The translations under genes were made by a program, and so were the position numbers. From positions 1 to 24,402 of the forward strand of contig JASLZZ010000033.1 of assembly GCA_030754595.1 (NCBI GenBank): DNA of 24,402 nucleotides. Reading direction: 5' to 3'. The notes beneath the pieces are model-generated. The model was not told the origin of the DNA and searched no databases. It saw only the letters and a program-made list of their open reading frames with translations. Below, piece after piece: positions 2,527-23,780 of this stretch (its first letter is position 1; each line of letters begins with the position of its first letter). Source of the stretch: Nitrospinota bacterium (GTDB lineage Bacteria > UBA8248).

Positions 2527-4506
2527 TCATGATTGCGAGATATCCTCCGGCCGGAATAGACACTCAGGCGCTGCGGGCCCGTTCCCCGGATGAGAAGCTC
2601 CCTCCGGAATGAAGGCTCCTACATTCTCCCGCACCTGGGCGATTGCCTCCTCGGCCAGGGCCAATGTTATGATTTGACGGCCCTGGGCGCGGGCTTCGGC
2701 CTCGACGCGCCCCCGGGTCATCGTGCGGGGAAATCCCTCGGGCACCCTCTCCAGGCGGGCCTCGGCCTCTTCGGTCCAGCGAAGGGGCTCATCTTCGTGT
2801 TCGGTCGGTGGCGAGGAAGGCGCGGTCTTCCGTCCGGACGCTGCCTCTCCGGGAAGCGTGTCCTCTTGCCCTTCGTCTGGGGAGGGCGCGGATGGAACCT
2901 CCTGCGGCAGGTGGGCTGGGTTGACGCTTTCCTTAATCAGAGGCCGGGCAAACTCGAGGCTTATGGTGGAAACCTTCTTGAGCCGGGCCGCCTTCTCGAT
3001 GCGCTCTTTTGCTCGGCGGCGCTCAAAGGCGTCCCCTACGCCATCGAGGGCGTCCCCCGCCGCCTTGGTCCACCGGAGCCGCCGGCCATCGAAAGTCTCC
3101 TCCTCTATGAACCCACCCTGCGCGCGTAAAACCTCATCCTCCACCCCGCGATCCACTTTTTGAAAGGCCTCCGCCCCCGCCCCGCAAACCGGGCAGCGTA
3201 CGGGGTCATCGGCCCTGGCGGTGTAACCGCAATCGGAGCAGATATGGCGGATGTCGAGATCGCGCCGGAGGTGATCTTCCGCCATCGCCTTCGCCATCCG
3301 CTCCATGACCTTTTGGGCGCCCATCGGCATGAAGGTTTCCATCGCCTCATCGATCATCTTATTCGTTACGACCGAGTGGCCCTGCTCAATCGCATAGCGC
3401 AGAACACCGGTCCGCGCCATGCCGCGTACAAAAGCGGGGACCCGCTCCATGCGTTCCAGCGCCTCATCCGTCCAGGCCACGGCCTCGTCAGCGCGGATTT
3501 CCATGGGAGGATTAAAAGTGCGCGCCGTGAGCAATACGTTGCAAGGGGCGAGCCTGAGCAGGTTTTCGGTGTTGGATCCCATGTCGCCCTCATCCACCGC
3601 ATGTACACCCACTCGGCCAAGGCACAAGAGCCAGGGCTTGACCTCGCGGCAGTAGGTGAGGATCTTCTCGAACGCCTTGCCGTCCAGGAGGGTGGTCTTA
3701 AGCTCCATGCCCTCCTCCTCGGCCAGCCGCTTGGCCACTTCGAGGTGGCCCTGGTAGATTTTCGCGAGACCCGTGTCGATGAGCTCTTCGTGGAGCTTTT
3801 CCTGCTCCTTGAAGCGGAATGTTTTTGCCGCTTTTTCGTTCAAAACGTTCACGATAGCCGAGAAAATGGTGTAGTGGAGATAGGGATCGAAGGCGGCCAC
3901 CGCCTCCACGGGCCGGTCAAGCGCGCGGCCCAGGGCAAGCGCCTGCTTCAAGGCAGCGAAGGACTGCGGGCTTCCGTCGATCCCCGCCACGATGGGCCTA
4001 CGCTCGTCCTTTTTTTCGAGATCGCGCACAATCCAAAAGTCGGTCTGCGCCCCGCGGACGACACGCTCGGCGACCCCGCCAACCTGGGTTTCCCGGCCCG
4101 CACCCATGCCGAGAGCCCCCATAACCACAAGGTCGTAGCGGCTTTGGGAGAAGTCTTCGAGAAGCATTTTGTAGTGCTTTCCGTCAAAAATCTTCCTCTC
4201 GAAGGGGATGTTCGCCTCCTCGCAGCGGCGCTCCAGGACGTCCAAATAGGAGTCCGAGATAAGACGGAGGCCGAGCGTGATGAGCGAATCATGGACCTCT
4301 CGCTGGTGCTCGAGTTCTTCTTCTTGTCGATATTTTTCAGGAAGGGTGTACTCCATCTGCTTGAAACGCATGTCATGGAGCTTCGCAGCGTAGACATGGC
4401 AACCCACCAAATGGGCACCAAAAGTAGAGGCCAAGCGAAGGGCGTGATCCATGGCGCGGTTCGAGTGGGCCGAGTTATCTACAGGCACGCAAATGGTTCG
4501 GTACAT
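2527..4506 (-). CDS. Multidomain universal stress protein: 2x USP + PCP_red + rubredoxin-like + 2x PCP_red (659 aa)
   Basis: Start moved to ATG 4506 (AGGAGG upstream; MYRTICVPVDNS). The second USP begins at IVAGIDGS. G-x2-G-x9-G motifs, CSDC...CPVC, and three WTxxA...-type repeats are present. Confidence 0.88.
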   Translation of the reverse strand: MYRTICVPVDNSAHSNRAMDHALRLASTFGAHLVGCHVYAAKLHDMRFKQMEYTLPEKYRQEEELEHQREVHDSLITLGLRLISDSYLDVLERRCEEANIPFERKIFDGKHYKMLLEDFSQSRYDLVVMGALGMGAGRETQVGGVAERVVRGAQTDFWIVRDLEKKDERRPIVAGIDGSPQSFAALKQALALGRALDRPVEAVAAFDPYLHYTIFSAIVNVLNEKAAKTFRFKEQEKLHEELIDTGLAKIYQGHLEVAKRLAEEEGMELKTTLLDGKAFEKILTYCREVKPWLLCLGRVGVHAVDEGDMGSNTENLLRLAPCNVLLTARTFNPPMEIRADEAVAWTDEALERMERVPAFVRGMARTGVLRYAIEQGHSVVTNKMIDEAMETFMPMGAQKVMERMAKAMAEDHLRRDLDIRHICSDCGYTARADDPVRCPVCGAGAEAFQKVDRGVEDEVLRAQGGFIEEETFDGRRLRWTKAAGDALDGVGDAFERRRAKERIEKAARLKKVSTISLEFARPLIKESVNPAHLPQEVPSAPSPDEGQEDTLPGEAASGRKTAPSSPPTEHEDEPLRWTEEAEARLERVPEGFPRTMTRGRVEAEARAQGRQIITLALAEEAIAQVRENVGAFIPEGASHPGNGPAAPECLFRPEDISQS

Positions 4507-4585
4507 TGAAATGAGCCCTCCTTTCGGGAAATACATACCGGAGAGGCCGGATTCGGGAAGCCTCGCGAAGCCTTTTCTAACGTCT

Positions 4586-5380
4586 CTACTTCTCCTTAAA
4601 TTCGAATTTAACGCTTACCGAACCGGCCGAAGAAACCGTGACCTGCTTGGCGATCTCGACGGGCGCGGCGTATTCGTAGAATGCGGGTTTGCCGTCTTTC
4701 TTGAGTGCCTTGGTGATCTTCCAACCCTCGTGCCAGGCCTTCAGGGTGTACTTGCCGGGTGGCACACCTTTGATTGTGAACCGGCCCTCCGCGTCGGTCA
4801 GAGCGTAGTAGGGATGATTCACCACCCAGATGTAAGCGCTCATCCATGCGTGGCCCGCGTCGCACCGCATCCAAATGATACCCGCGCGCTTGAGCCGCCT
4901 CTTGATGGTGAGCCCCTTCCGCGGGAAGGGCAGATTGTAGGAAGCTTTGCCGAACATGTGGATGTTGTGGAGGACCTCGTCGCCCGTCGTCATGGCGAGC
5001 TTGGCGCGCCGAGGGACGATGAGAACATGAGGGGTATACTCGCAGTTCTTCTGGTCGAGCAAAACGGGTTTTTTGGGCCGCACCAGCTTGCGGCCCTGCC
5101 GGATGTCGGCGAGGTAGACTACCGTGTTCTTCACTCCCTTGCTTTGAGAGTGAATGAGTAGCCTGGGCGAGGCCTTCTTTCCCGTCTTCCCCGCATCGCA
5201 CACCTCGGTGTTCTTTAGAACAGGAAAAGACGGCACCTTCGGGATGCCCCCACCCCAAATCACGCTACCGGTGATGGTTCCGCCGTTCTTTACCTTGATG
5301 GCCTTATACGCCGCATCCGCCGACGGAGTCAGGAAAACCGCCAGTGAGACGAGAAAAGCAACCGCCAACGACAGTCTCAT
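4586..5380 (-). CDS. Exported cupredoxin-like protein with a C-terminal carboxypeptidase-regulatory-like beta domain
   Basis: Signal peptide ending ADA, a type-1 copper-like ligand set HNIH...CDAGHAWM, and PYYALTDAEGRFTIKGVPPGKYTLKAWHE. Confidence 0.8.
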   Translation of the reverse strand: MRLSLAVAFLVSLAVFLTPSADAAYKAIKVKNGGTITGSVIWGGGIPKVPSFPVLKNTEVCDAGKTGKKASPRLLIHSQSKGVKNTVVYLADIRQGRKLVRPKKPVLLDQKNCEYTPHVLIVPRRAKLAMTTGDEVLHNIHMFGKASYNLPFPRKGLTIKRRLKRAGIIWMRCDAGHAWMSAYIWVVNHPYYALTDAEGRFTIKGVPPGKYTLKAWHEGWKITKALKKDGKPAFYEYAAPVEIAKQVTVSSAGSVSVKFEFKEK

Positions 5381-5437
5381 TAAATTACCCTCCTTTTATG
5401 ATTCGCCCCGTGGCGCAGAGTGCGCCGCCGCGTTCTC

Positions 5438-6355
5438 TCATTTTCCCTCGCCCGCGCCCGGCTGGGCGGGGGCGGCGCCCGAGGAGGGAGCCTTCAGTAA
5501 CTTCAGGAAATCGGCCAGGTTCTGCAGCTGCGCGACCGTCATGCTCTCCGCGAACTCAGGCATCTTGCTCTTGCCGTCTTTTGTGGTGTATCCCTTACCT
5601 CCCACGATCACCGCGTTCGGGTTCACGATGGACTCGATGAGGTACTCCCGCGTCTGGATATCTCCGATACCGGTGAGATCGGGCCCCACGCCCCCTTCCT
5701 CTTCATCCTTTGAGACGGGGAATTTCACGCCGGCAACCTTGTGGCATTTAAAACACTCCATCTCCTCGAAGGTGTCCTTGCCGTCCTCGGGATCTCCCTC
5801 GGGAAACCGGATGCTGGGCGCCATGGACGCCGCGGCCAAATCCCGCGATTTCCCCTTATATGGGGCTTGGGCTCTGGCTACCTGCTGGAGTTCCTTCGCT
5901 CCCACCTCGATGCCGCTTTCGCTCAGGAGGTAGCTGATGACGGCTGCGATCTCCTCGTCCGAGAGGGCGATGGGAGGCAGGTGAATGGGTGTCATCAGCT
6001 TGGAGAAGCCGGGCACGATAAAGACATCGGGCTCGTAGATCGACTCTACGATGTACTGGACGGCGCTCATGCCGGGCTTGCGCTTGGCGGACCGCACCTC
6101 GATAGGCTCCGTGAAGGCGTCTTTCACCCCCAGGTTTGGCCCGCGCTCGGCGCTGCCCCGGCTCCCCAGGCTGTGGCAGGTGGAGCATTTGCCCTTGTTC
6201 CAGAATAGCGCTTCTCCCGCCTCGGGGGAGATCTCCCCGCTCGGCCGCATCGTCCCGCCACCACCCGAGATCTCGGTCAATACAACGGAGACGTAGATGA
6301 ACGCGCCGATCCAGATCAGGGAAAACAGGCTGACCTTCAACAGAGTCTTCCCCAT
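5438..6355 (-). CDS. Membrane-anchored dihaem cytochrome c
   Basis: N-terminal TM helix, CSTCH and CFKCH each followed by GPxL and YxxESIxxP motifs, and distal Met candidates. Confidence 0.92.
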   Translation of the reverse strand: MGKTLLKVSLFSLIWIGAFIYVSVVLTEISGGGGTMRPSGEISPEAGEALFWNKGKCSTCHSLGSRGSAERGPNLGVKDAFTEPIEVRSAKRKPGMSAVQYIVESIYEPDVFIVPGFSKLMTPIHLPPIALSDEEIAAVISYLLSESGIEVGAKELQQVARAQAPYKGKSRDLAAASMAPSIRFPEGDPEDGKDTFEEMECFKCHKVAGVKFPVSKDEEEGGVGPDLTGIGDIQTREYLIESIVNPNAVIVGGKGYTTKDGKSKMPEFAESMTVAQLQNLADFLKLLKAPSSGAAPAQPGAGEGK

Positions 6356-6360
6356 GGGCG

Positions 6361-8070
6361 CTATCCCTCCTCACCTCTCCCGGCGCCGGAGCCCGAATGC
6401 CCATTCCGTCGTCCGCGGACCCGCCGAACCAGAAAACCCTCGAAAGCCAGCCCGACAAGCCCGCCCAGGAGGGCGTAGAGGTAGACGCCGATAGGCGTCT
6501 CGGTATCGAGCTGCACGTAGTGCCAGCTCGAGACGCTTCGCCGCATGCCGAACTCTCCATTTCTCCCGTCCCAGGCGTGGAGCACAAAGGGAACCCGCAT
6601 GCCGGGGGCGAATTGGACGTCCGTTTTTAGGTTGGGCGTTTGGAGCGGCCGAACGATCACCACCTGCCACTGGCCCGCGGAAAATGAAGCCTGGCTGCGC
6701 ACATGGTGCTCCCGGGCGGGCTTATTGGCCGGAGGCCGGCTAAACCCCTTGCCCACCTGCTCCAATACGGTCCGGCCCCCGTGGTCGGCCGGGTTCTTCT
6801 GCCAGTCCGCTCGCCACTCCCAAAGATCAACAGCCGAGCGCGCCCCACCCAGGAAGAAGTAGGGCTTGCGGGGCCCCGCGGGTGGTTTCGCCGGAAACTG
6901 GAGGGCGATGGCGTCGCGTGCGGTCCGAAGGGCGAGTTGATCCTTGACGGAGACGAAGCTGTCGCGCTGAGGCGCGAGGAACCGCTTCGGCACTTTGTGG
7001 GATTCATTCTTGAAGCGATCGAACCAAGAGATGCGAAAAGCGATCGATCGCCCGTCGTGGAGCGCCCGCACCGTCGCCCGATCGACAGAGGGATTGGGCC
7101 AGCGCGGCCGGACGATGAGTTGGCCGCTCAGAGGGACCTCAAGGCGGTCGGCCTCGTCCCAGCGGGGATCATCGGGGCGGAGGGGAATTTTACCCTCGGC
7201 GCTCCGGGCGGTGAGGACCACCTTCCCGCCTAGGGCTTCCTCCGCCTGGAGAGAGGACACGTAGTAGGCCAGGGCCCAACGTTCTCGCTCGTTGAGCGAG
7301 TCGGAGTATCCCGGCATGGGAGTTCCGTTGAGGCCGGTCGAGAGGGTTCGAAAGACCTCCTCTAGCGAGGGGCCCCAGTTCTTGTAGCGCCAGCCCGCCG
7401 CCAGGTTCGCCGGCATGATGGGAGCGTCCCAGTCGTCCTTCTGGGTGCCTGCCTCCTCGCCGTCCCCCCTACCCTCGGGGCCATGACACTTGACGCAGGC
7501 CCCCCGCGCCTCATCGATGTAGATCTTCCGCCCGAGCTGGATCAGCTCGGAGCTCTCGGCCGGGGGGGGGCCTTGTTTGATGAGCTCCTCGTAGGGGTTG
7601 AACTCGGGGTCGGCGAAGTCCTCGAAGAAGCTCTTGATGTAGAAGACCACCTGCCAAAGCTCGTCCTCGGGCAGGCGGAATGTCCCCTCCCCCCAGGCCG
7701 GCATGCCGGTGCCGGGTGCGCCAAGCGAGACGGTGCGGAAAATATCCTCGTCCGTAGGGCTCTCGCCCGTCTTTGTCGTGCGAAATTTATAGAGGCCCTT
7801 CGTGAAGTCCCGGGGCCGGGGGTGGAGGTAGTCGGCGACGGGGCCGTTTCCGTCCCCCTTCTCCCCGTGGCAGAAACCGCAACGCTTCTCGTAGACCACT
7901 TTCCCCTTGGCCACAAGCTCGGGAGTGGCCTTTGGCTTGCGCTCCCTCAGCTCGGAGTTCCCGTAGCCGGCCGGGACGGCCAGCGCCGGTACAGACCCGA
8001 GGGCGAGAATCGCGCCGAGGAGGAGCGCAAGGGCGCCCGCCATCCGCCTGCGTCCGCTCTCGCTAGTCAT
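6361..8070 (-). CDS. Dihaem cytochrome c + EbdC/DMSO-reductase gamma-like domain with C-terminal TM anchor (569 aa)
   Basis: Start moved to ATG 8070 (8043 also possible), overlapping the upstream stop. Signal peptide, CGFCH, CVKCH, PRPRDFTKGLYKFRTT, DAIALQFP...WDG, and a hydrophobic C-terminal helix. Confidence 0.88.
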   Translation of the reverse strand: MTSESGRRRMAGALALLLGAILALGSVPALAVPAGYGNSELRERKPKATPELVAKGKVVYEKRCGFCHGEKGDGNGPVADYLHPRPRDFTKGLYKFRTTKTGESPTDEDIFRTVSLGAPGTGMPAWGEGTFRLPEDELWQVVFYIKSFFEDFADPEFNPYEELIKQGPPPAESSELIQLGRKIYIDEARGACVKCHGPEGRGDGEEAGTQKDDWDAPIMPANLAAGWRYKNWGPSLEEVFRTLSTGLNGTPMPGYSDSLNERERWALAYYVSSLQAEEALGGKVVLTARSAEGKIPLRPDDPRWDEADRLEVPLSGQLIVRPRWPNPSVDRATVRALHDGRSIAFRISWFDRFKNESHKVPKRFLAPQRDSFVSVKDQLALRTARDAIALQFPAKPPAGPRKPYFFLGGARSAVDLWEWRADWQKNPADHGGRTVLEQVGKGFSRPPANKPAREHHVRSQASFSAGQWQVVIVRPLQTPNLKTDVQFAPGMRVPFVLHAWDGRNGEFGMRRSVSSWHYVQLDTETPIGVYLYALLGGLVGLAFEGFLVRRVRGRRNGHSGSGAGRGEEG

Positions 8071-8917
8071 GGAACTTCTCCGGCTTCCGGGGCTCCACGC
8101 CCGCCGTGGCGTACTCGGCGAGGATGATCTTCCATATCTCCTCATCCGTGAGGTCTTCCTTCCAGGGCGGCATGGCGCTGTCCCAGGGGCTCGCCGTCAC
8201 GGGGAGACCGATCCCGCCCTCCTTGATGCGCCAGAAGAGATAGCCCTCCACCAGGGTGGCGATGGTGCCCAGGTCGGTGAAGTTGGCCGGCTTGAGGCGG
8301 AATCCCGCCGCGTGGGGGCCCTCGCCGTCGGCCTTGGTGCCGTGGCAGGGCCGGCAGTTCTTCTGGTAGAGAACGCGCCCCTCCCGGGTGTGGCGCGCCA
8401 GGAGGCGGCGCCTCCCTTGCTGAAGGCTGAGCCCCGCGAGCTTTTCCTCTTGCATGAACTTTTGCACCAGGGCGTCGGAGGGTTTGCGGAAGGGGTTTTG
8501 GAATTTTTCGAACTTTTTGGGAATGGTAGGGTGCTGAATCCGGCTCTCAACCGGTGCCTCACTCGCCGGGGCGAGGCCGCGGTAGACGAAAAAAGCGGTG
8601 AAGAGGGGAATAGCGGTGAACACGGCCAATCGTGTTGCCCGAAGGACCCTACCCCCTTCCGCCGCCCCAAGGAGCACCAGGATGGGCTCCATGAACTCGC
8701 TCTTGAGCTCCTCACTCGAGAAGGCGTAGACGAGAATGCCCGAGAGAACGAGCAACATGTACATAAAGATCGCGCTAGCCGGCATTGGGAGGGGGGTCTT
8801 GGCATCCACCACCCACTGCGCAAAGTGAGGGAAGAGGAATCGCAGGGCCAGATAGCTCCCCACGAATACGGCCGCCGACCACCAGAACACCCCCGCTCGC
8901 CTGCCGCTCCAGCTCAT
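8063..8917 (-). CDS. Membrane protein (about 3 TM helices) with a C-terminal monohaem cytochrome c domain
   Basis: Three hydrophobic segments, CRPCH, PANFTD, and SAMPPWK (distal Met). ATGA overlap with the bd-like gene. Confidence 0.9.
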   Translation of the reverse strand: MSWSGRRAGVFWWSAAVFVGSYLALRFLFPHFAQWVVDAKTPLPMPASAIFMYMLLVLSGILVYAFSSEELKSEFMEPILVLLGAAEGGRVLRATRLAVFTAIPLFTAFFVYRGLAPASEAPVESRIQHPTIPKKFEKFQNPFRKPSDALVQKFMQEEKLAGLSLQQGRRRLLARHTREGRVLYQKNCRPCHGTKADGEGPHAAGFRLKPANFTDLGTIATLVEGYLFWRIKEGGIGLPVTASPWDSAMPPWKEDLTDEEIWKIILAEYATAGVEPRKPEKFHD

Positions 8918-10926
8918 TGACCCATCCCTCCAACAGGTTCCGCTCCACGACCCTGGGCAGCGGCGTGAGAGCTTTCTTCACCCAGGGTGCCCAGCCAGAA
9001 AACAAAGGTCATGAGCACCAGGTAGAGGACGGTGATACCGCCCACCACCCAAGCCATATGCGCCATCGTCGGCGTGAAGGCCCCCGCGGAGGTGTCCCGC
9101 AGGACGCCGAAAATATGCCAGTCCTCCCGCAACCCCGAGCGGATGAATCCCATCAATCCCATGAGAAGCACGACGCTCACACAAAGGAGGATCAGCGCGT
9201 ATTGCGCCCGCACCGGGCCCCTCCCCCACCGAATCCCGCCGACCTCCTCCGCCCCCCGAAAGAGGTAGATGTCCACGGTCGTCACGAAGATGAGCGCGGT
9301 CAGTACGATGAGCACCTGGACCACCGCGATCTCGCGGAGGAACGGGTTGGCCTTCTCGAGCACAACGAAGCCGTATGGCCCCAGAAAAAAGGCGGCGGAA
9401 AAGACCGCGCTCCCGAGGTAGAGAAACTGGGCCGCCACGCCGCGGTCGCGGTAGGTCATGAGCGCGCAGACCGCCAGCAAGATGACGTGACCAATCATGA
9501 GATAGGCGGGGATGAGAAAGTACACGCGGCGGTCAGGCGAAAGCTCCATGTCGCGCGGATCGAGCGTGAAGAGCACGGCGGTGAACCAGACCAATAGCAG
9601 GGCCGATACCGCCGCCGCCGCCCCCACCACCACCTTGCCCCGAAGGCCGTGTTCGGCGAAGGGGAGACGCTCGCCCTTGTTCCCCCGGCGGTAGAGAAGG
9701 AAACTCAAATAGGTGGATAGAATGATAAAATTCACCGCCGCGTTCTTCGCGGGCATGAGACCCAAATACTTCAGGACCGGATGATATTGGCCCCCCATGA
9801 GGACTTGCTCGGTCGAGCTCAGCGGGAGGTTGTGGGGCGTGAGCCAGACGGCGAAACAGAGGATAAGGACGAGGTTGAGCCACTTGATGAAACCCTGGTA
9901 GCGCTCGGCCCCCGGGATGCGCTCCATCCCGTTCCAGAGGTAAAAATTGGCCCCGATGAAGAGCATCCCAATCAGTATGGCCTGGATGATGAAGGTCCAG
10001 CTGAAGGCGCCGCCCATCATGTTATTGCCCATGACGGGACTGAAGCTGTACATCTCCCGCCCCAGCCAGTAGCCCGCAAAAGGCAGCGGGATCAGGGCGC
10101 TCATCCCCACGAAGTTGCCCACATAGCCCATCCAGTCGTAATGGGCCCGCTCCTCCTGGCGCTCCGAACCCAGGAACTTAATCGCGGCGTAGGCCCCCAC
10201 GATGAAGCCCCCGAAGGCGACGTTGGCGATGAGGCGGTGCACGTTCAGAGGCATCCAGAGCGGGTTCGCGATCGCCGCCCAGGCGGTGCCGACAAACCGG
10301 CTCGTCTCGGGGTCGATCCCCGTGGGAGTCATCATGTAGGTCACCCACGCGTTGGAGATGGCCATGATCAAGATGCCCGTCAGGTTCAGCACGAGCCCGA
10401 AGCTCATGTGGAGCCGCTTCTTCGGCCCCCCCTGCAGCCGATCCCAAGAGTAGTAATAAAGGTAAAGCGAGAAGGCCTCGGCGAAGAAGAGAAGGGAGTA
10501 GATGTACATCGAGCCGTGGAAGACGCCGCCCATGAAGTTCATAAAGCGCGGATAGAGGCCGAAAAGCAGAAAGACAAAGAGCCCCCCGAGAGAGGCCGTG
10601 GTGGCGAAGGCGGCCGAGAGGAGCCTGGTGAATTCATGTGCAAGGCGATCATACCGCTGGTCGCCGGTCCGGTGCCCGATGTACTCGGTGATGAGGGCGA
10701 AGAGGGGGACCCCGAGCACGAAGGCCCCGAACATCAGGTGAAGCTGTGCCACCACCCAGACGGTGGTGCGGGAATCGAAACCGAAGAAACTCCGGTATTC
10801 CGCGGCGGCCCCCGCCTGAGCCAGCGCGGGAATCGGCAGGAGAGCCAGGAGGACCAGCGAGGCCGCCAGGATCCAGCGCCCAGCAACCCATCGCTCGGTC
10901 CCAAGGCCCGGGAGATGCGCGCTCAT
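8914..10926 (-). CDS. Cytochrome bd oxidase subunit I-like (non-canonical) polytopic membrane protein
   Basis: Many TM helices with CydA-like motifs QLHLMFGAFVLGVP, FAEAFSLYLYYYSWD, NAWVTYMMTP and NPLWMPLNVHR. The C-terminal MGFIRSGLREDW stands where CydA has GWxxxExGRQPW. Confidence 0.85.
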   Translation of the reverse strand: MSAHLPGLGTERWVAGRWILAASLVLLALLPIPALAQAGAAAEYRSFFGFDSRTTVWVVAQLHLMFGAFVLGVPLFALITEYIGHRTGDQRYDRLAHEFTRLLSAAFATTASLGGLFVFLLFGLYPRFMNFMGGVFHGSMYIYSLLFFAEAFSLYLYYYSWDRLQGGPKKRLHMSFGLVLNLTGILIMAISNAWVTYMMTPTGIDPETSRFVGTAWAAIANPLWMPLNVHRLIANVAFGGFIVGAYAAIKFLGSERQEERAHYDWMGYVGNFVGMSALIPLPFAGYWLGREMYSFSPVMGNNMMGGAFSWTFIIQAILIGMLFIGANFYLWNGMERIPGAERYQGFIKWLNLVLILCFAVWLTPHNLPLSSTEQVLMGGQYHPVLKYLGLMPAKNAAVNFIILSTYLSFLLYRRGNKGERLPFAEHGLRGKVVVGAAAAVSALLLVWFTAVLFTLDPRDMELSPDRRVYFLIPAYLMIGHVILLAVCALMTYRDRGVAAQFLYLGSAVFSAAFFLGPYGFVVLEKANPFLREIAVVQVLIVLTALIFVTTVDIYLFRGAEEVGGIRWGRGPVRAQYALILLCVSVVLLMGLMGFIRSGLREDWHIFGVLRDTSAGAFTPTMAHMAWVVGGITVLYLVLMTFVFWLGTLGEESSHAAAQGRGAEPVGGMGQ

Positions 10927-12260
10927 TGTCCCCCCCCGAGGCGATCCCGGACGAAGCCGGGCATGAGGCTCCGCGGGAGAAGCGCCTCGCGGGCCTCCTT
11001 CATCAGATCGGCCGTGACGGAGGAAACGCCCCGCTCCCGCGCATAATCCTCCACGCTTTTCGCCACCATCCCCCGTGCGAAGGAAGGGATGCGCGAGAGG
11101 CGCTCCCGGGCCTCTGCCGTCCAGGGGAAACCCCTCTCGACCTCGAGCCCGAACCGCCCTTCCTCGGAAAAGCGCACCAAAGGCACATCGCCCGGGGGCT
11201 CATAGGCGCAAGCGGGGTCCTCCGCCATCACGTCTCCCGTCGCCGCGTAGGCCCGGCACCGGCACCCACCGCACACCTCGCGGAACTCGCACCGTCCGCA
11301 CCTTCCCTTGAGTTCGCCTGAGCGATAATGGCTGAGGAGTGAAGAGGAGCGCCAAATCTCCCCAAAAGGCTTATCGCGTAAATTTCCTGCCGAAAGCGAA
11401 ACGTAGGGGCAGGGCGTCACCTCGCCCGAAGGACCGATCCGGCAATACTCCCGCCCCGCGGGGCAACCGCCGTTGGCGTAATCAGATAGAAGAGGCGAAG
11501 CAGGATCGGCCTCGTAGACAACCCGGCGGAAATGCGGGGCGCATTTCGCCCGGATGAGGAGATCATCTCCCTCGCGGGTCCTTTCGCCAGGACCTTCACC
11601 GTTGCCATTCACCCCCTGGACCCGCGCCAGGAAGCGCAACGCCTCCTCGCAACGGGGAGCGGGCAATTCGCTAAAACCCTCGCCCCGGCCCGTTCGAACG
11701 AGGAAGAAGACATTCAAAACCTGGGCGCCCCGTTCCCGGGCAAAATCCACCATGGCGGGCAACTCCTCCGCGTTCCATTCCATGGCCGAGAAATGGAGGG
11801 AAAAGGGAAGGCCCGCCTCCTCCAGCAGGCGCATGGCCCGCACCGCCTTCTCCCAACCGCCGGGGAGACCGCGGAATTGGTCGTGCCGCTCTGGATCGAC
11901 CGAGTCCAGGCTCACGCTCGCCCCCTGAATACCCGAAGCCTTCATTCGCTCAGCCACTCGCCCGTCGAGCAGGACACCGTTGGTCCCAAGGACCACTGTG
12001 AACCCTCGTTTCGACGCATTTTCAGCGATGTCGAAAAGGTCATGCCGCACAAGGGGCTCCCCTCCCGTCAGGATGAGAAACGCGTTGGGGTTCACCTCGG
12101 CCATCTGGTCCACCACCCCGAGACACTCATCCCGGCTGAATTCCGCCGAGCGGTCCGCCCCGGGGAAGGCGCTCATGTAGCAGTGGGCGCAACGCTGGTT
12201 GCAGCGCTTGGTCAGGTTCCAGCTGATTGCCTGGACACGCCTCTCGGCGGTTTCTGCCAT
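10923..12260 (-). CDS. Radical SAM/SPASM enzyme, AhbD/NirJ-like, with a C-terminal PCP_red domain (445 aa)
   Basis: Start moved to ATG 12260 (GAGGAAAGG upstream). WNLTKRCNQRCAHCY, LTGGEP, CAPHF, GCPAG, CGRCEFREVCGGCRCRAYA...DPAC, and WTAEARERLSRIPSFARGM. Confidence 0.9.
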   Translation of the reverse strand: MAETAERRVQAISWNLTKRCNQRCAHCYMSAFPGADRSAEFSRDECLGVVDQMAEVNPNAFLILTGGEPLVRHDLFDIAENASKRGFTVVLGTNGVLLDGRVAERMKASGIQGASVSLDSVDPERHDQFRGLPGGWEKAVRAMRLLEEAGLPFSLHFSAMEWNAEELPAMVDFARERGAQVLNVFFLVRTGRGEGFSELPAPRCEEALRFLARVQGVNGNGEGPGERTREGDDLLIRAKCAPHFRRVVYEADPASPLLSDYANGGCPAGREYCRIGPSGEVTPCPYVSLSAGNLRDKPFGEIWRSSSLLSHYRSGELKGRCGRCEFREVCGGCRCRAYAATGDVMAEDPACAYEPPGDVPLVRFSEEGRFGLEVERGFPWTAEARERLSRIPSFARGMVAKSVEDYARERGVSSVTADLMKEAREALLPRSLMPGFVRDRLGGGQ

Positions 12261-12327
12261 CCTTTCCTCTCCCGGAAGGAACACCTCCATCCCGGACCAT
12301 TCCCTCAACGAGCTTCGCCCTCCCCCG

Positions 12328-13143
12328 CTAATCCGGAGGCTGGGACGAAACCTCCAAGGCCGCGGCGAAAACCGAAGAAGTGACACAACCGAGCCCTTGC
12401 TCTTGCGCAAAGGCGGCGACTTTCTCAAGGGTGCTCCGGCGCTTCTCGACATCCTCGATTCCGCGCCACTCCTCGACCGCCTCCCGCGACCAGTCGACTG
12501 TCGCATCCGCCTCCGCCCGCCCCGCTTCCCCGCGAGGAACCGCGGTTGGGGGCCTCACCTGCCGGGAGCGCATCATTTTCCGGGCCGGGGCGGGAATCAT
12601 CGTTTCGAACAAAGCCTCGAGCAGAGCGGGTGTCACGACGGTCTGCTTGCGATTGTGGGCCTCTGCTTCAACCTTTTGTCTGACCATGGGCCGGACAAAA
12701 GAAGGCACCTTCTCGATTCGGGCCTCGGCCTCCGGGGTCCAGAGGATGCCCCGCTCCGGCGCGCCCTCGAAGTAATCGCGGAACTTCGCCATGATCTCCT
12801 CGCTCCGCTCCGATCGCTGGGCCAGGAAAGCCTGAATGTCCTCGATAACCTCGAGCTTGCGCGCGTTGCGCCTCAGCTTCTGCTTGGCCACCTCGAACGC
12901 CCCCGGATGAAGCTCCTCAAATCCCATCCGCTTCATGCTCCGCGTCACCCTCAGCATCGACTCATCCCGAATCTGGGTGAGGAAATCCGAGGTGATGAGG
13001 GGTTGCTCCAGCTCGGAGGCGCGCTTGGCCATCAATTTGTAGATGCCCGGCCGAACGAAATCGGGAGCGTCCTCGATACGCCGGAGCGCCGTCGTGCTCC
13101 AGAGGGTTTCATCCCGTTCCGGCGGCGGCGAAAGAGATCCCAT
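12328..13143 (-). CDS. Protein made of three PCP_red (BchB C-terminal-like) domains (about 271 aa)
   Basis: Likely start is ATG 13143. Repeats: WSTTALRRIEDAPDFVRP, WTPEAEARIEKVPSFVRP and WSREAVEEW. Confidence 0.8.
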   Translation of the reverse strand: MGSLSPPPERDETLWSTTALRRIEDAPDFVRPGIYKLMAKRASELEQPLITSDFLTQIRDESMLRVTRSMKRMGFEELHPGAFEVAKQKLRRNARKLEVIEDIQAFLAQRSERSEEIMAKFRDYFEGAPERGILWTPEAEARIEKVPSFVRPMVRQKVEAEAHNRKQTVVTPALLEALFETMIPAPARKMMRSRQVRPPTAVPRGEAGRAEADATVDWSREAVEEWRGIEDVEKRRSTLEKVAAFAQEQGLGCVTSSVFAAALEVSSQPPD

Positions 13144-13327
13144 CTCGATCAACCCATCTAAAGAGAAGCAAAGGAACCCACTTTCATCCGCCGGCCTCAC
13201 TCTCGGTGAGGCTTCCTCGCATAAGTGCGCAGGCCATATCGGAGGCCTCGAAGGGAATGGAGCCCCCACCAGCCATAGGGTCGGCGAAGGCAATCTCCCT
13301 CTTTTTCCAATGACACGCCTTTTACCT

Positions 13328-15829: not shown

Positions 15830-17116
15830 CTAAATGGAGTTTTGGTGCTTCTCGGGCCTGACGTGTAGTGGCTCCTGGACGGAAAGACTTACAACCTCCT
15901 TGCCGTTCTTGTCGAAGCCGATGACCGTGTCGTTGTACATCTCCCACTTTTTCCCGTTGATGGTTTTCTCGAAGATCTTCGGCCCTTCCTTGATCTCATA
16001 CCGAAAGATGATCTTCTGCTGAGCCCGGAAAAGCTGCAAAACGGCCAGAAGCTCCCTAGAGGGGGCCGCGTACCTTTCAATGGCCTCATCCACCCCGGGC
16101 CCGAACATTTGTCTTAAGTATGGGCGAGGCGCCCACCTCGGAGGGATGTAGTAGCCATTCGCCTCGGTCCCGAACTGTGGATACAAAGGGAGAGCTACTT
16201 TTTCTACCTTGACCATGAAATAGAGTGGGTTATAGCGATCCTCCGCCCAGTCGCCGGTCTTTTCGTCGATCTTGGCCAAGCCCTGCATCCGAATCTTCCC
16301 CACGCACGAGCTCATACAACGAGTCTCGATGGGGGCCCCATCGGGGGTAATATGGGGGTCTTTGCCCTCGATCCTGGGATAGCAGGCGATGCATTTCTCC
16401 GTGACCCTTGTGGTCCCCCTGAACATCGGCTTCTTGTAAGGACAGGCCTCGACACATTTTCTGTAGCCCCGGCAACGATTCTGGTCGATCAAAACGATCC
16501 CATCCTCCGGCCTTTTGTAAATGGCCTTTCTGGGACAAGCGGCGAGGCAGGCCGGGTAAGTGCAGTGATTGCAGATCCGTTGGAGATAGAAAAACCAGGT
16601 TTTATGCTCGGGCAGCTCCGCCGAATCGCCCCACTTGCCCACGGCTCCTTCGGGGCCTGCGGCCGTGTCTTCATAAATATTGGGGTAGCGCCACTCCTCG
16701 TCGGTAGGGATGTAGCCGATAGCTCGTTGATGCCCTTTAGGACCGTAGCGTTTGATGGCCGCCTCAAATATGGTGACCCCATCGAAGGCGCCGTAGGGGC
16801 GCTTGTTCCCATCCTTCTGTGCAGTATCCCAGACCTGCCCACCGGCGTTGGCCTCTTCCAAAAGTTTCAGTGTCTTCATATCCCAGGACTGGGGGTAGCC
16901 CCCATAGGGCTTGGTCTCGACGTTGTTCCACCACATGTACTCCTGGCCCTTGGAGAAGGTCCATGTGGACTTACAGGCCATGGTGCAGGTCTGGCATGCA
17001 ATACAGCGGTTGGTGTTGAACACAAAGGCGAACTGACTCCTGGGATGGGCCTCCTCGTAGGGATAGGCCATCTTCCTTCCGAGCTGCCAATTGTAAACCT
17101 TATGCCAATTTGCCAT
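15830..17116 (-). CDS. nxrB: Nitrite oxidoreductase / nitrate oxidoreductase beta (Fe-S) subunit, periplasmic-NXR type (428 aa)
   Basis: Start moved to ATG 17116 (AGGAGG). VYNWQLGR..YPY, CIACQTCTMACKSTW, WWNNVETKPYGGYP, CNHCTYPACLAACP, CRGYRKCVEACP and CIACYPR...CMSSCVG. Confidence 0.95.
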   Translation of the reverse strand: MANWHKVYNWQLGRKMAYPYEEAHPRSQFAFVFNTNRCIACQTCTMACKSTWTFSKGQEYMWWNNVETKPYGGYPQSWDMKTLKLLEEANAGGQVWDTAQKDGNKRPYGAFDGVTIFEAAIKRYGPKGHQRAIGYIPTDEEWRYPNIYEDTAAGPEGAVGKWGDSAELPEHKTWFFYLQRICNHCTYPACLAACPRKAIYKRPEDGIVLIDQNRCRGYRKCVEACPYKKPMFRGTTRVTEKCIACYPRIEGKDPHITPDGAPIETRCMSSCVGKIRMQGLAKIDEKTGDWAEDRYNPLYFMVKVEKVALPLYPQFGTEANGYYIPPRWAPRPYLRQMFGPGVDEAIERYAAPSRELLAVLQLFRAQQKIIFRYEIKEGPKIFEKTINGKKWEMYNDTVIGFDKNGKEVVSLSVQEPLHVRPEKHQNSI

Positions 17117-17438
17117 CGCTCTTCGCCTCCTCAGAACTCGGTTTCTTAAACTCGTCTTGACCAAGCCAGCAGGATATGTCCTCGCCTTTGTAATATCCCC
17201 ATCTCTGCCTCAGAGTTGCGATGAGGCGGTGGACATACATTTCACCCTTCTCTTGGTAGACCCTGTGGGTGGCCTGGTAAAAGGGATCTCGGAAGAGGCG
17301 AAGTAGACTTTCATCGTCCCAGCCGCCCCGGATGTACTCCTCCACCAAGCACTCCGCCATCTGCTCGAGATCCCCTCCAGGGAGCGACACACCTACCAGC
17401 TCCATGGGGTCATTGGCGTCAAACTTTTTCTTAATCAT
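17100..17438 (-). CDS. Small hypothetical protein between nxrA and nxrB (112 aa)
   Basis: Fills the nxrA-nxrB gap, starting 9 bp after the nxrA stop and overlapping the nxrB start. Protein-like sequence DPMELVGV...MAECLVEEY...LFRDPFY. Confidence 0.8.
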   Translation of the reverse strand: MIKKKFDANDPMELVGVSLPGGDLEQMAECLVEEYIRGGWDDESLLRLFRDPFYQATHRVYQEKGEMYVHRLIATLRQRWGYYKGEDISCWLGQDEFKKPSSEEAKSDGKLA

Positions 17439-22677: not shown

Positions 22678-23157
22678 TCAGTTGGAATACGGAACGGTTC
22701 TATCCTCTTCTTGCCATCCTAAGGAGGCCCGCTCTTCAGCTGCCGAGGGGAGAAGTTCCCCGCATGAAACATCGGGCACCACACCTTCTTCCGTCTTAAG
22801 CCCTATCTTTTCGGCCTCGATGAAATCGGAGAGCAATCGGGCCGCGGCGGCGTAGCGGAAGCACGCCGCCAGACGGGTATAGATGCGGCCCCTCGCCAGC
22901 GAGATCATCCTCTCGGAGACGTTCGGGGAGTTCATAACGCCCCTCCTCAAAAGCTGTTCAGCCGCCCAGTCGACCGTCTCCTCATCAAGGCTCGGAAACA
23001 GAGCCCGAAACTCCGCGGCCCTCCGCTCGCGCACGCCCTCGGGGAGCTTGGTCTTCCTCTCGGGCCTGCCGTCCACGGACAGATCCCAGAGAGTACGGTA
23101 CCGATCGCGGAAGAGAAGCTCCTCTTGAAGTACATCAATCAACAGGGAATTGGCCAC
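22678..23157 (-). CDS. Hypothetical protein (159 aa)
   Basis: Fills the space between rrf2 (19-bp overlap) and the cytochrome gene (stop abuts its start). No motif recognised. Confidence 0.6.
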   Translation of the reverse strand: MANSLLIDVLQEELLFRDRYRTLWDLSVDGRPERKTKLPEGVRERRAAEFRALFPSLDEETVDWAAEQLLRRGVMNSPNVSERMISLARGRIYTRLAACFRYAAAARLLSDFIEAEKIGLKTEEGVVPDVSCGELLPSAAEERASLGWQEEDRTVPYSN

Positions 23158-23780
23158 GGGTTGACATCCACCGATTCAGAGGAAGAAATGTTTACCCCCT
23201 CCGTTTCGGCAGTAACGGTGCAACACTCAGATAACAGAACCTCGGGAGGGGGCAGGATCTCCATTTCCTCGGGCATGGGTTTGCCCCTTTTTTCCTCCAA
23301 ATTGTTCAAATCCGCGAAGTTCCGCCAAAAAGAGAGGGAGAAGATACTCTTGTTCTCCCCCCCCATCTCTCGTCTTTGCTTTGTGGCGATGACGATGTCG
23401 TGCAGATTGGTCTCGAAAAAGTCGTCCAGTCTCGCCTTCAGGAGTTTCCAGCGCTCGTGGAGGTGACAAGGTTTCTCCTCCGAGCAATCACGAAACCCAC
23501 AGGCAAAGTCCTCGAAAGGCCCCCTTCCCCCGATAGCGGACGCGATCCTCCCTAGGGATACCTCCTTGGGGGGAATTGCCATGCGGTATCCACCGCCAGG
23601 ACCCCTGCTGGATTTGATGATGCCGCCCCTCGAGAGCGCGCGAAGGGCCTTGGCAACGGTCGGCTTTGAGATCCCGGTGGCTAAGGCCAAATCTCGCCCC
23701 GTGTGGATATCCTTCCTATCCACCGCCATGTGGGAGAGGAGGCAAAGCGCGGTACTGGCAGGTTTCGAGTAGATGGGCAT
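23139..23780 (-). CDS. Rrf2-family transcriptional regulator with a C-terminal extension
   Basis: SKPTVAKALRALSRGGIIKSSRGPGGGYRMAIPPKEVSL and CGFRDCSEEKPCHLH, plus about 70 extra C-terminal residues. Confidence 0.92.
   Translation of the reverse strand: MPIYSKPASTALCLLSHMAVDRKDIHTGRDLALATGISKPTVAKALRALSRGGIIKSSRGPGGGYRMAIPPKEVSLGRIASAIGGRGPFEDFACGFRDCSEEKPCHLHERWKLLKARLDDFFETNLHDIVIATKQRREMGGENKSIFSLSFWRNFADLNNLEEKRGKPMPEEMEILPPPEVLLSECCTVTAETEGVNISSSESVDVNPWPIPC

Follow-up and report, generated by a model that had tools for sequence, protein, structure and literature searches.

The contig JASLZZ010000033.1 of assembly GCA_030754595.1 (Nitrospinota bacterium; GTDB lineage Bacteria; UBA8248), which we analysed over its whole length of 24,402 nucleotides (hereafter the window), encodes three proteins that carry the PCP_red domain (PF08369): a radical SAM/SPASM enzyme, a tandem universal stress protein (USP) and a protein with three PCP_red repeats, here called the three-repeat protein. 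On balance, we favour a reading in which these proteins constitute a cytoplasmic module that would synthesise haem and hand it over to a membrane complex of a cytochrome bd-like protein, an alternative NxrC-like protein and cytochromes c, all encoded in the same gene string. The likely client of the PCP_red set is the bd-like protein and not the nitrite oxidoreductase (NXR). If true, this would provide a function outside chlorophyll synthesis for a Pfam domain that is known only from BchB. The helper set is widespread and apparently undescribed in print, as the literature that we searched contained no description of it, in agreement with an initial annotation, made from the sequence of this DNA alone, whose author knew of no characterised system like this. 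The relevant genes, assigned by Pfam, lie on the minus strand, as do all main genes of the window:

12328-13143 (open reading frame 12328-13293), minus strand: three-repeat PCP_red protein
10923-12290 (open reading frame 10923-12506), minus strand: radical SAM/SPASM enzyme with PCP_red
8914-10926, minus strand: cytochrome bd-like membrane protein with a CydA-like N-terminal part, the proposed client
8063-8917, minus strand: cytochrome c, 284 aa, a conserved neighbour of the bd-like gene
6361-8145, minus strand: alternative NxrC-like protein, the third in the window, with two cytochrome c domains and an EB_dh haem b domain
5438-6355, minus strand: cytochrome c, 305 aa, conserved beside the bd-like gene and assigned to the client membrane complex
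4586-5380, minus strand: CarboxypepD_reg-like protein, 264 aa, a conserved cluster member
2527-4536, minus strand: open reading frame of 669 aa for the tandem-USP protein, which carries a rubredoxin-like Cys4 knuckle and PCP_red in three copies

Judging from the lengths of homologues, translation likely starts at M51 (13143) in the three-repeat protein, which would then comprise 271 aa, at about M73 (12290) in the radical SAM enzyme and at M11 (4506) in the USP protein. With a start at about M73, the radical SAM gene would not overlap the gene upstream of it.

The Pfam gathering cut-off of PF08369, 32.5 bits, is exceeded by all three proteins: taken as wholes, the USP protein scores 98.7 bits, the product of 12328-13293 scores 73.9 bits and the radical SAM enzyme 57.8 bits. 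The initial annotation had counted seven PCP_red domains in them, some degenerate, and had named a search with this profile as one way to check it; both the count and the expected matches were borne out. There are one copy in the radical SAM enzyme and three each in the other two proteins, four of them strong and three degenerate. They are listed here together with the Cys4 ribbon of the USP protein:

10989-11123, minus strand: PCP_red of the radical SAM enzyme; strong, 62.1 bits; matches 2KRU (E 1.4e-7) and ChlB residues 453-509 of 2XDQ_B
12967-13101, minus strand: PCP_red copy 1 of the three-repeat protein; degenerate, E 3.2e-4
12613-12741, minus strand: PCP_red copy 2 of the three-repeat protein; strong, 59.7 bits
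about 12343-12501, minus strand: PCP_red copy 3 of the three-repeat protein; the most degenerate copy, not recognised by Pfam
3343-3474, minus strand: PCP_red copy 1 of the USP protein; strong, 54.7 bits
2950-3072, minus strand: PCP_red copy 2 of the USP protein; degenerate, E 5.7e-4, 22.4 bits
2644-2778, minus strand: PCP_red copy 3 of the USP protein; strong, 46.7 bits, above the cut-off
3163-3243, minus strand: rubredoxin-like Cys4 zinc ribbon of the USP protein, residues 432-458 (CSDCG...CPVCG)

Copy by copy, four pass the cut-off, two are weak (E 3-6e-4) and one is missed by Pfam. A six-frame PF08369 scan of the whole assembly gave six matches, four above the cut-off and two weak, all of which fall inside the window. 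For the degenerate copies we used a custom hidden Markov model (HMM) built from ten strong copies, with the three degenerate ones left out; its four seeds from the window match by construction, among them copy 1 of the USP protein (i-E 1.1e-25). This model recovered copy 1 of the three-repeat protein at an i-E of 9.9e-5, copy 2 of the USP protein at 0.0019 and, as a partial match, copy 3 of the three-repeat protein at 0.0068, and no other of the 329 six-frame stretches of at least 40 aa in the window scored better than E 2.9. The seventh copy (about 12343-12501) can be aligned to the other six and retains their invariant W, A and A as well as the VT, and Pfam detects three PCP_red stretches in orthologues of the three-repeat protein.

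In the AlphaFold model of the three-repeat protein, which has a mean predicted local distance difference test (pLDDT) score of 68 and a predicted template modelling score (pTM) of 0.30, a strand-helix-helix-strand-helix unit like that of 2KRU occurs three times, at residues 14-60, 134-182 and 217-267, with block pLDDT values of about 80-89 (82-89 for copy 1 and about 82-85 for copy 3). When the whole model was compared with the PDB using Foldseek, no match was obtained at E <= 0.001; the top-ranking entries were the two PCP_red-type structures solved as single domains, 2L09 (E 0.017) and 2KRU (E 0.027), both above that line, and 2KRU, at rank 2, superposes over 54 columns with a root-mean-square deviation of 1.3 Å. 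All entries retrieved from the ESM Atlas were further PCP_red clusters, and a model of the three-repeat protein was not among them. The helical insert between repeats 1 and 2 is highly conserved, with an invariant GFEEL among other positions, and is modelled with low confidence.

The radical SAM enzyme contains Radical_SAM (87.9 bits), SPASM (36.9 bits) and PCP_red (57.8 bits) domains in Pfam, and its best NCBIfam matches, both over the full length, are NirJ2 (TIGR04055, 299 bits) and AhbD (TIGR04545, 283 bits). The core motif CX3CX2C reads CNQRCAHC, and the C-terminal CX2CX5CX20C is present as C-GR-C-EFREV-C followed by a cysteine 20 residues on; among 25 homologues, five of the six motif cysteines are invariant and one is nearly so. 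In the text of PMC10114771, an auxiliary-cluster motif of the form CX2CX5CX20-21C at the C-terminus is given for NirJ, AhbC and AhbD. The architecture Radical_SAM, SPASM, PCP_red was found in 120 of the 120 best homologues (53-99% identity), whose named sources are Nitrospinota, NC10/Methylomirabilota, Tectomicrobia/Entotheonella and 'Nitrospiria'. No AhbD structure was among the entries of the PDB copy that we searched. Peptide maturase models scored far lower (MftC 141 bits, PqqE 132 bits; NCBIfam), and a maturase of ribosomally synthesised and post-translationally modified peptides was set aside, given that these scores are less than half of those of the haem-enzyme models and that no small precursor gene is evident. 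A reductase of the type of dark-operative protochlorophyllide oxidoreductase (DPOR) was rejected for want of a nitrogenase-like body: the DPOR subunit B model (TIGR01278) matches only over its last ~50 positions, with 39-52 bits versus a cut-off of 490 bits, and the Pfam scan of the window open reading frames (ORFs) found no Oxidored_nitro domain. The initial annotation's remark that the window holds no chlorophyll genes is true for the 20 ORFs scanned by Pfam.

The initial annotation had also named conserved linkage of the three PCP_red genes, and their neighbourhood with the bd-like gene, as points to check, and linkage of these genes to each other and to the bd-like gene was found in other genomes, namely in G025, G029, the loci L018 and L022 and Methylomirabilota loci. 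The stop of the radical SAM gene and the start of the bd-like gene overlap by 4 bases, both in the window and in G025, a genome of the same taxonomic order but another family that has the gene order of the window spread over two contigs at identities of 70-85% (three-repeat, radical SAM, bd-like on one; cytochrome c, alternative NxrC, cytochrome c, CarbReg-like, USP on the other). In G029, from the same class, all cluster genes share one locus in a different order, and in G005 the three-repeat, radical SAM and bd-like genes stand together on a 3.5-kb contig. Further afield, the Binatia locus L018 comprises radical SAM, bd-like, cytochrome c, alternative NxrC-like and three-repeat genes, and L022 (G181) has all of these plus a USP gene.

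Relatives of the three-repeat protein were found at 199 loci in a collection of species-representative genomes, of which 80 were kept for neighbourhood analysis; the named ones come mostly from Nitrospinota, then from Methylomirabilota/Rokubacteria, with single records from Binatia and Tectomicrobia. In four of these 80 loci, L017 (G025), L018, L022 and L027 (G029), the retrieved flanks contain both a bd-like gene and a radical SAM gene like that of the window, whereas about eight Methylomirabilota loci have NXR genes beside the three-repeat gene instead. Most of the remaining loci, the larger part of them labelled Nitrospina, Nitrospinaceae or Nitrospinota, are without other cluster genes, and a few show nothing beyond a weak cytochrome c-type or PCP_red match. 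We also inspected four Methylomirabilota loci that were chosen because PCP_red and bd-like matches fall on one contig. Three of them contain USP, radical SAM, (single-PCP_red protein), bd-like, cytochrome c, cytochrome c and NxrC-like genes in this order, and the fourth has the same genes rearranged. The three-repeat gene is missing from the cluster in some lineages, where a different, single-PCP_red protein is found beside an Mrp/NUBPL ATPase instead, and G223 has only the USP and radical SAM proteins and a single-copy PCP_red protein.

Co-occurrence was scored in 322 genomes from three phyla: 51 of the window's own phylum, 120 of Nitrospinota (the phylum of G036) and a sample of 151 of Methylomirabilota (the phylum of G177):

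Own phylum, 51 genomes: PF08369 in 5 and bd-like in 4; both 4, PCP_red only 1, bd-like only 0, neither 46
Nitrospinota, 120 genomes: PF08369 in 116 and bd-like in 111; both 111, PCP_red only 5, bd-like only 0, neither 4
Methylomirabilota sample, 151 genomes: PF08369 in 104 and bd-like in 91; both 91, PCP_red only 13, bd-like only 0, neither 47

All 206 bd-like-positive genomes therefore contain PCP_red. The Methylomirabilota figure of 91 includes four genomes that are unpublished (G209, G226, G237 and G280); leaving them out gives 87/87 in 147 genomes. Within the own phylum, the bd-like gene and the radical SAM/USP/three-repeat set occur in precisely the same genomes, namely G000 (the assembly of the window), G005, G025 and G029; in G026, the fifth genome with PF08369, the only copy sits on a NIR_SIR protein and there is no bd-like gene, and the four other genomes of the window's genus gave no PF08369 match. 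In Nitrospinota, PCP_red is close to universal but its genes are dispersed; complete genomes typically have nine PF08369 matches, and the four members of this phylum with neither gene represent two separate families. Five further genomes from other phyla have neither PCP_red nor a bd-like gene.

The initial annotation had offered both the bd-like protein and the NXR partners as recipients of a haem cofactor, and only the first of the two is supported. The counts just given speak for the bd-like protein as the likely client. A haem-related role as such is the reading with the best support, from the nearest relatives of the radical SAM enzyme, NirJ2 and AhbD, and from the HemQ-like and NIR_SIR fusions described below. 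An NxrA-like gene is present in 14 of 51 genomes of the own phylum, 10 of them without and four with PCP_red; in the Methylomirabilota sample, NxrA (E <= 1e-100) was detected in 49 of 151 genomes, again 10 of them without PCP_red, and it is missing from 65 of the 104 PCP_red-positive and 56 of the 91 bd-like-positive genomes. On these counts, we rejected the idea that the gene set serves NXR.

The proposed client matches Cyt_bd_oxida_I (PF01654) with 89 bits, though only to profile positions 2-243 of 418, and the NCBIfam CydA model with 22 bits versus a cut-off of 968. The Pfam scan found no CydB-like gene in the window, which does not hold the pair of a full-length CydA and a CydB. Residues 57-249 of the bd-like protein align to CydA of 5DOQ, and His ~63, Glu ~145 and His ~231 pair there with three identical residues of CydA that we take to be its haem ligands. 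Related bd-like proteins of Nitrospira, Nitrospina and anammox bacteria have been proposed to be novel terminal oxidases or membrane anchors of NXR, with cofactors and assembly described as unknown in the text of PMC6606698. The Nitrospira cluster type described there, alt_NxrC_2 with two cytochromes c and bd-like_3, is conserved in Nitrospina and anammox bacteria, ranks among the most transcribed genes and was suggested to anchor NXR or to link it to the quinone pool (PMC6606698). None of the terms radical SAM, protochlorophyllide, universal stress, chlorite dismutase and heme biosynthesis occurs in the main text of PMC3578206, which describes the genome of Nitrospina gracilis and whose supplements may list such genes.

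PCP_red is also fused to other enzymes. In the Nitrospinota genome G036, the sole Cld-family gene (L014:8178-9137, 319 aa) encodes an N-terminal PCP_red joined to a Chlor_dismutase family domain, and its best NCBIfam match is HemQ, the H2O2-dependent haem synthase, with 145 bits versus a cut-off of 235. Open frames of 320-342 aa with a PCP_red match occur in other Nitrospinota genomes. In G026, a protein of 292 aa (L013:8878-9756) related to small sulfite reductases combines an N-terminal PCP_red with NIR_SIR and Fer4. Together with BchB/ChlB and the radical SAM family, the HemQ/ChdC-like and NIR_SIR proteins bring the tetrapyrrole-type enzyme families with PCP_red to four. Small proteins of 144-167 aa that end in PCP_red occur as well. 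As a separate observation, a P-loop ATPase of the Mrp/NUBPL type is encoded beside a PCP_red-ending gene in two phyla (L016:344-1734 in G036, L104:5538-6943 in G239 and L105:1818-3202 in G201). The neighbour is a small protein of about 145 aa in G036 and G201, the Mrp/NUBPL gene of G239 precedes a frame with a PCP_red match, and no such pair was found in the window.

Under the reading that we favour, the radical SAM/SPASM enzyme would perform AhbD-type, oxygen-independent side-chain chemistry on an iron tetrapyrrole, most likely the conversion of coproheme to haem b, and its C-terminal PCP_red would form a small helical cap over the tetrapyrrole pocket, as it does in BchB. There, the C-terminal helix caps the protochlorophyllide cavity and partly unwinds upon substrate binding (PMC4071322). 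The three-repeat and USP proteins might hold the tetrapyrrole or pass it from the synthase to the client, and the Cys4 knuckle of the USP protein may accept or supply the single electron needed by AhbD-type catalysis; AhbD requires an electron acceptor, by a path given as unknown in the text of PMC10114771. A more far-reaching version, which we consider tentative and rather doubtful, holds that PCP_red is a portable tetrapyrrole hand-over domain and that a dedicated machine, composed of the radical SAM enzyme, the USP protein and the multi-PCP_red proteins, produces a haem that might differ from haem b and loads it into bd-like proteins, which could not function without it.

A docking-only form of the proposal made in the initial annotation, in which the PCP_red domains are protein-protein docking tags without any contact to a tetrapyrrole and the three-repeat scaffold gathers the radical SAM enzyme and the USP/rubredoxin partner into one complex, appears unlikely to us. 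It is true that PCP_red is terminal on each enzyme, at the C-terminus of the radical SAM protein and at the N-terminus of the HemQ-like and NIR_SIR proteins, that it is multiplied three to five times in non-enzymatic proteins, and that the mode of divergence differs among the three copies of a given protein, as would be expected for distinct partners; the conserved, poorly modelled GFEEL insert could likewise fold on binding. However, docking alone leaves unexplained why every enzyme partner found is of a tetrapyrrole type, and the presumed scaffold is absent from the cluster in lineages such as that of G223. A complex prediction for the radical SAM enzyme and the three-repeat protein returned 'no answer' (score 0.00, mark 0.32) and speaks neither for nor against binding.

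The haem pathway context bears on what the radical SAM enzyme may produce. In G036, hemE and hemH are adjacent, and the one Cld-family and the one AhbD-like gene are both PCP_red-tagged; no AhbA/B-type domain was found in this genome, and the gene content fits a coproporphyrin route in which both terminal enzymes carry PCP_red. An AhbD-like enzyme might replace ChdC anaerobically in the coproporphyrin pathway according to the text of PMC10114771, and the oxygen-independent enzyme for the ChdC step is called unknown in that of PMC10965808, so that the gene set has a bearing on which enzyme replaces ChdC without oxygen. In G000, contig C123 (25000-33380; L107) carries hemE, hemH and a hemY-type amine oxidase gene in a row, together with a divergent AhbD-like gene (443 aa) without PCP_red, and a Cld-family gene lies on C71. 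G025 and G029 also have other AhbD-like paralogues. Given these genes, the window enzyme is an extra copy in G000, and likewise in G025 and G029. The AhbD-like gene on C123 is itself a candidate for the oxygen-independent coproheme decarboxylase of the coproporphyrin pathway, and a second hemE-hemH pair of G000 is located on C87.

Several points weigh against a haem synthesis and delivery module for the bd-like complex. Plain haem b synthesis by the window enzyme would look redundant in G000. The enzyme does not reach the curated 500-bit equivalog cut-offs of either AhbD or NirJ2 (283 and 299 bits), and its substrate may therefore differ from theirs. None of the residues conserved in the PCP_red alignment is a potential iron ligand of the His, Cys, Met or Tyr type. 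Marine Nitrospinaceae have the genes dispersed among uninformative neighbours (the three-repeat gene in L040 and L011), the surroundings of the USP and radical SAM genes in G036 are equally uninformative, and 19 PCP_red-positive genomes are without a bd-like match, five of them (Nitrospinota) being 61-83% complete. Since the genomes are related and the genes physically linked, the co-occurrence counts amount to few independent events, and beyond the three phyla covered the same bd-like cluster is reported for Nitrospira and anammox bacteria (PMC6606698). Finally, the domains, their conserved linkage, the co-occurrence with the bd-like gene and the fusion partners of PCP_red are observed, while the substrate, the binding of a tetrapyrrole by PCP_red, electron transfer and delivery to the bd-like protein are inferred.

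Slightly less probable than docking, in our view, is that the radical SAM enzyme makes from haem or a precursor a distinct cofactor for the bd-like protein, with the PCP_red proteins as its carriers. Such a product would suit an enzyme that G000, G025 and G029 possess on top of AhbD-like and ChdC-like housekeeping genes, that scores below both equivalog cut-offs and that belongs to a large family of its own with a fixed fusion (120/120 best homologues); its gene is translationally coupled to the bd-like gene, and not one of the 206 bd-like-positive genomes is without PCP_red. Yet in G036 it is the sole AhbD-like gene, fitting a general haem b synthase there, the alignment of His, Glu and His with CydA gives no hint of a special cofactor, and the chemistry cannot be read from these sequences. 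With regard to the synthesis and delivery of haem as we favour it, the helper set accompanies the bd-like gene wherever the latter was found in the genomes searched, so that co-expression of the two could open a route to a cofactor-loaded complex and to the identity of the haem.

The USP protein matches Usp (PF00582) with 132 bits in two stretches (cut-off 24) and narrowly falls below the cut-off of RUBY_RBDX (PF21349; 26.4 bits vs 26.5). The motif G-x2-G-x9-G-(S/T), which we take to be the nucleotide motif of USP domains, agrees with the second USP domain; the first has G at the final motif position here, where most homologues have S/T. In an alignment of 17 family members, the CxxC...CxxC knuckle is found in 12 and deleted in five, W355 and W489 are invariant and W587 is near-invariant. 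PCP_red copy 1 is strongly conserved among them, and copy 2 is degenerate, yet its W489, A493, E514, K515 and A517 are invariant; some homologues possess two further PCP_red copies. The second USP domain harbours an insert at residues ~217-320 (window ~3577-3888), in which Y219, H221, H249, Y261, H264 and H312 are invariant (n=17). A regulatory role, in which the USP and PCP_red proteins would not carry a cofactor but control the respiratory complex or haem synthesis according to the nucleotide, redox or tetrapyrrole state that they sense, seems very improbable to us: the two USP domains, with a nucleotide motif in the second, the dispensability of the knuckle in 5/17 homologues and the Rrf2 regulators at both flanks of the island would agree with it, but it explains neither the fixed fusion of PCP_red to catalytic enzymes nor the tight coupling of the radical SAM and bd-like genes, and Pfam detects no DNA-binding or signalling output domain in the three proteins.

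The remaining genes of the window flank this set. From the high-coordinate end downward, they are:

23139-23780: Rrf2 regulator (Pfam), at the high-coordinate end of the gene string
after the Rrf2 gene (23780 downward), minus-strand string: 159-aa protein without a Pfam match
minus-strand string: first of three NxrC-like proteins, with two cytochrome c domains and EB_dh (Pfam)
minus-strand string: NxrA-like molybdopterin subunit, 1166 aa (Pfam)
17100-17438: 112-aa ORF between the NxrA and NxrB genes, without a Pfam match
minus-strand string, next after the 112-aa ORF: NxrB-like 4Fe-4S subunit (Pfam)
minus-strand string, next after the NxrB-like gene: NarJ-like chaperone (Pfam)
between the NarJ-like and three-repeat genes: second NxrC-like protein (Pfam)
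1927-2367: second Rrf2 regulator (Pfam), at the low-coordinate end of the gene string

Homologues of the CarboxypepD_reg-like protein hold the same position in L008, L009, L018, L022 and L106, and the 112-aa ORF is kept in its position in L020 and L030 at 40-57% identity. Rrf2 homologues adjoin NXR genes in the Methylomirabilota loci L026, L029 and L035 and an NxrC-like gene in L021. The assembly (3.55 Mb in 138 contigs) is 96.9% complete and 6.4% contaminated, and in tetranucleotide composition the window, which is its whole contig C33, deviates more than any other of the 93 contigs that reach 10 kb. Window NxrA shares 90% identity with NxrA of G025 but only 64% with a second NxrA in this bin (C66:7845-11270), which resembles the copies of related genomes. 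The contig is either a transferred island or mis-binned, and its host assignment is uncertain because it is a compositional outlier of its bin; the identities of the genes are unaffected. G+C content is 48-49% over positions 1-2000 and 55-66% in the 1-kb bins of 2001-23000, which may mark an island boundary.

Among known systems, ChdC/HemQ coproheme decarboxylase catalyses the same reaction as AhbD (PMC10965808) and has a HemQ-like counterpart with PCP_red in Nitrospinota; it differs in its unrelated fold and H2O2-dependent chemistry, and none is encoded in the window. The alt_NxrC_2/bd-like_3 cluster of Nitrospira has the same composition as the window genes at 5438-10926, whereas radical SAM, universal stress and heme biosynthesis genes go unmentioned in the main text of PMC6606698. 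The C-terminal domain of BchB/ChlB resembles the window domains in sequence and fold (PF08369, 2KRU, 2XDQ); here, PCP_red is free-standing, repeated or attached to other enzymes, with neither an Oxidored_nitro body nor chlorophyll genes. With AhbD and NirJ2, the window enzyme shares the CX3CX2C core, the SPASM-type cysteine motif and full-length alignment to both models, but it carries a constant C-terminal PCP_red and is linked to a bd-like respiratory gene and not to haem-synthesis genes. The siroheme-dependent AhbD pathway relies on AhbA/B and AhbC, whereas G000 has hemE-hemH-hemY instead, with no match to the AhbA/B-type domain PF17805 in the genome and no AhbA/B or AhbC partner genes in the window. 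HemW, which we place in the HemN/CgdH-like subfamily, without SPASM and without PCP_red partners, is different in these respects. Like the module proposed here, however, it is a cytoplasmic protein of the radical SAM family, a haem chaperone that inserts haem b into a membrane respiratory enzyme, the nitrate reductase NarGHI, and thus offers an analogy for the delivery step (PMC10114771).

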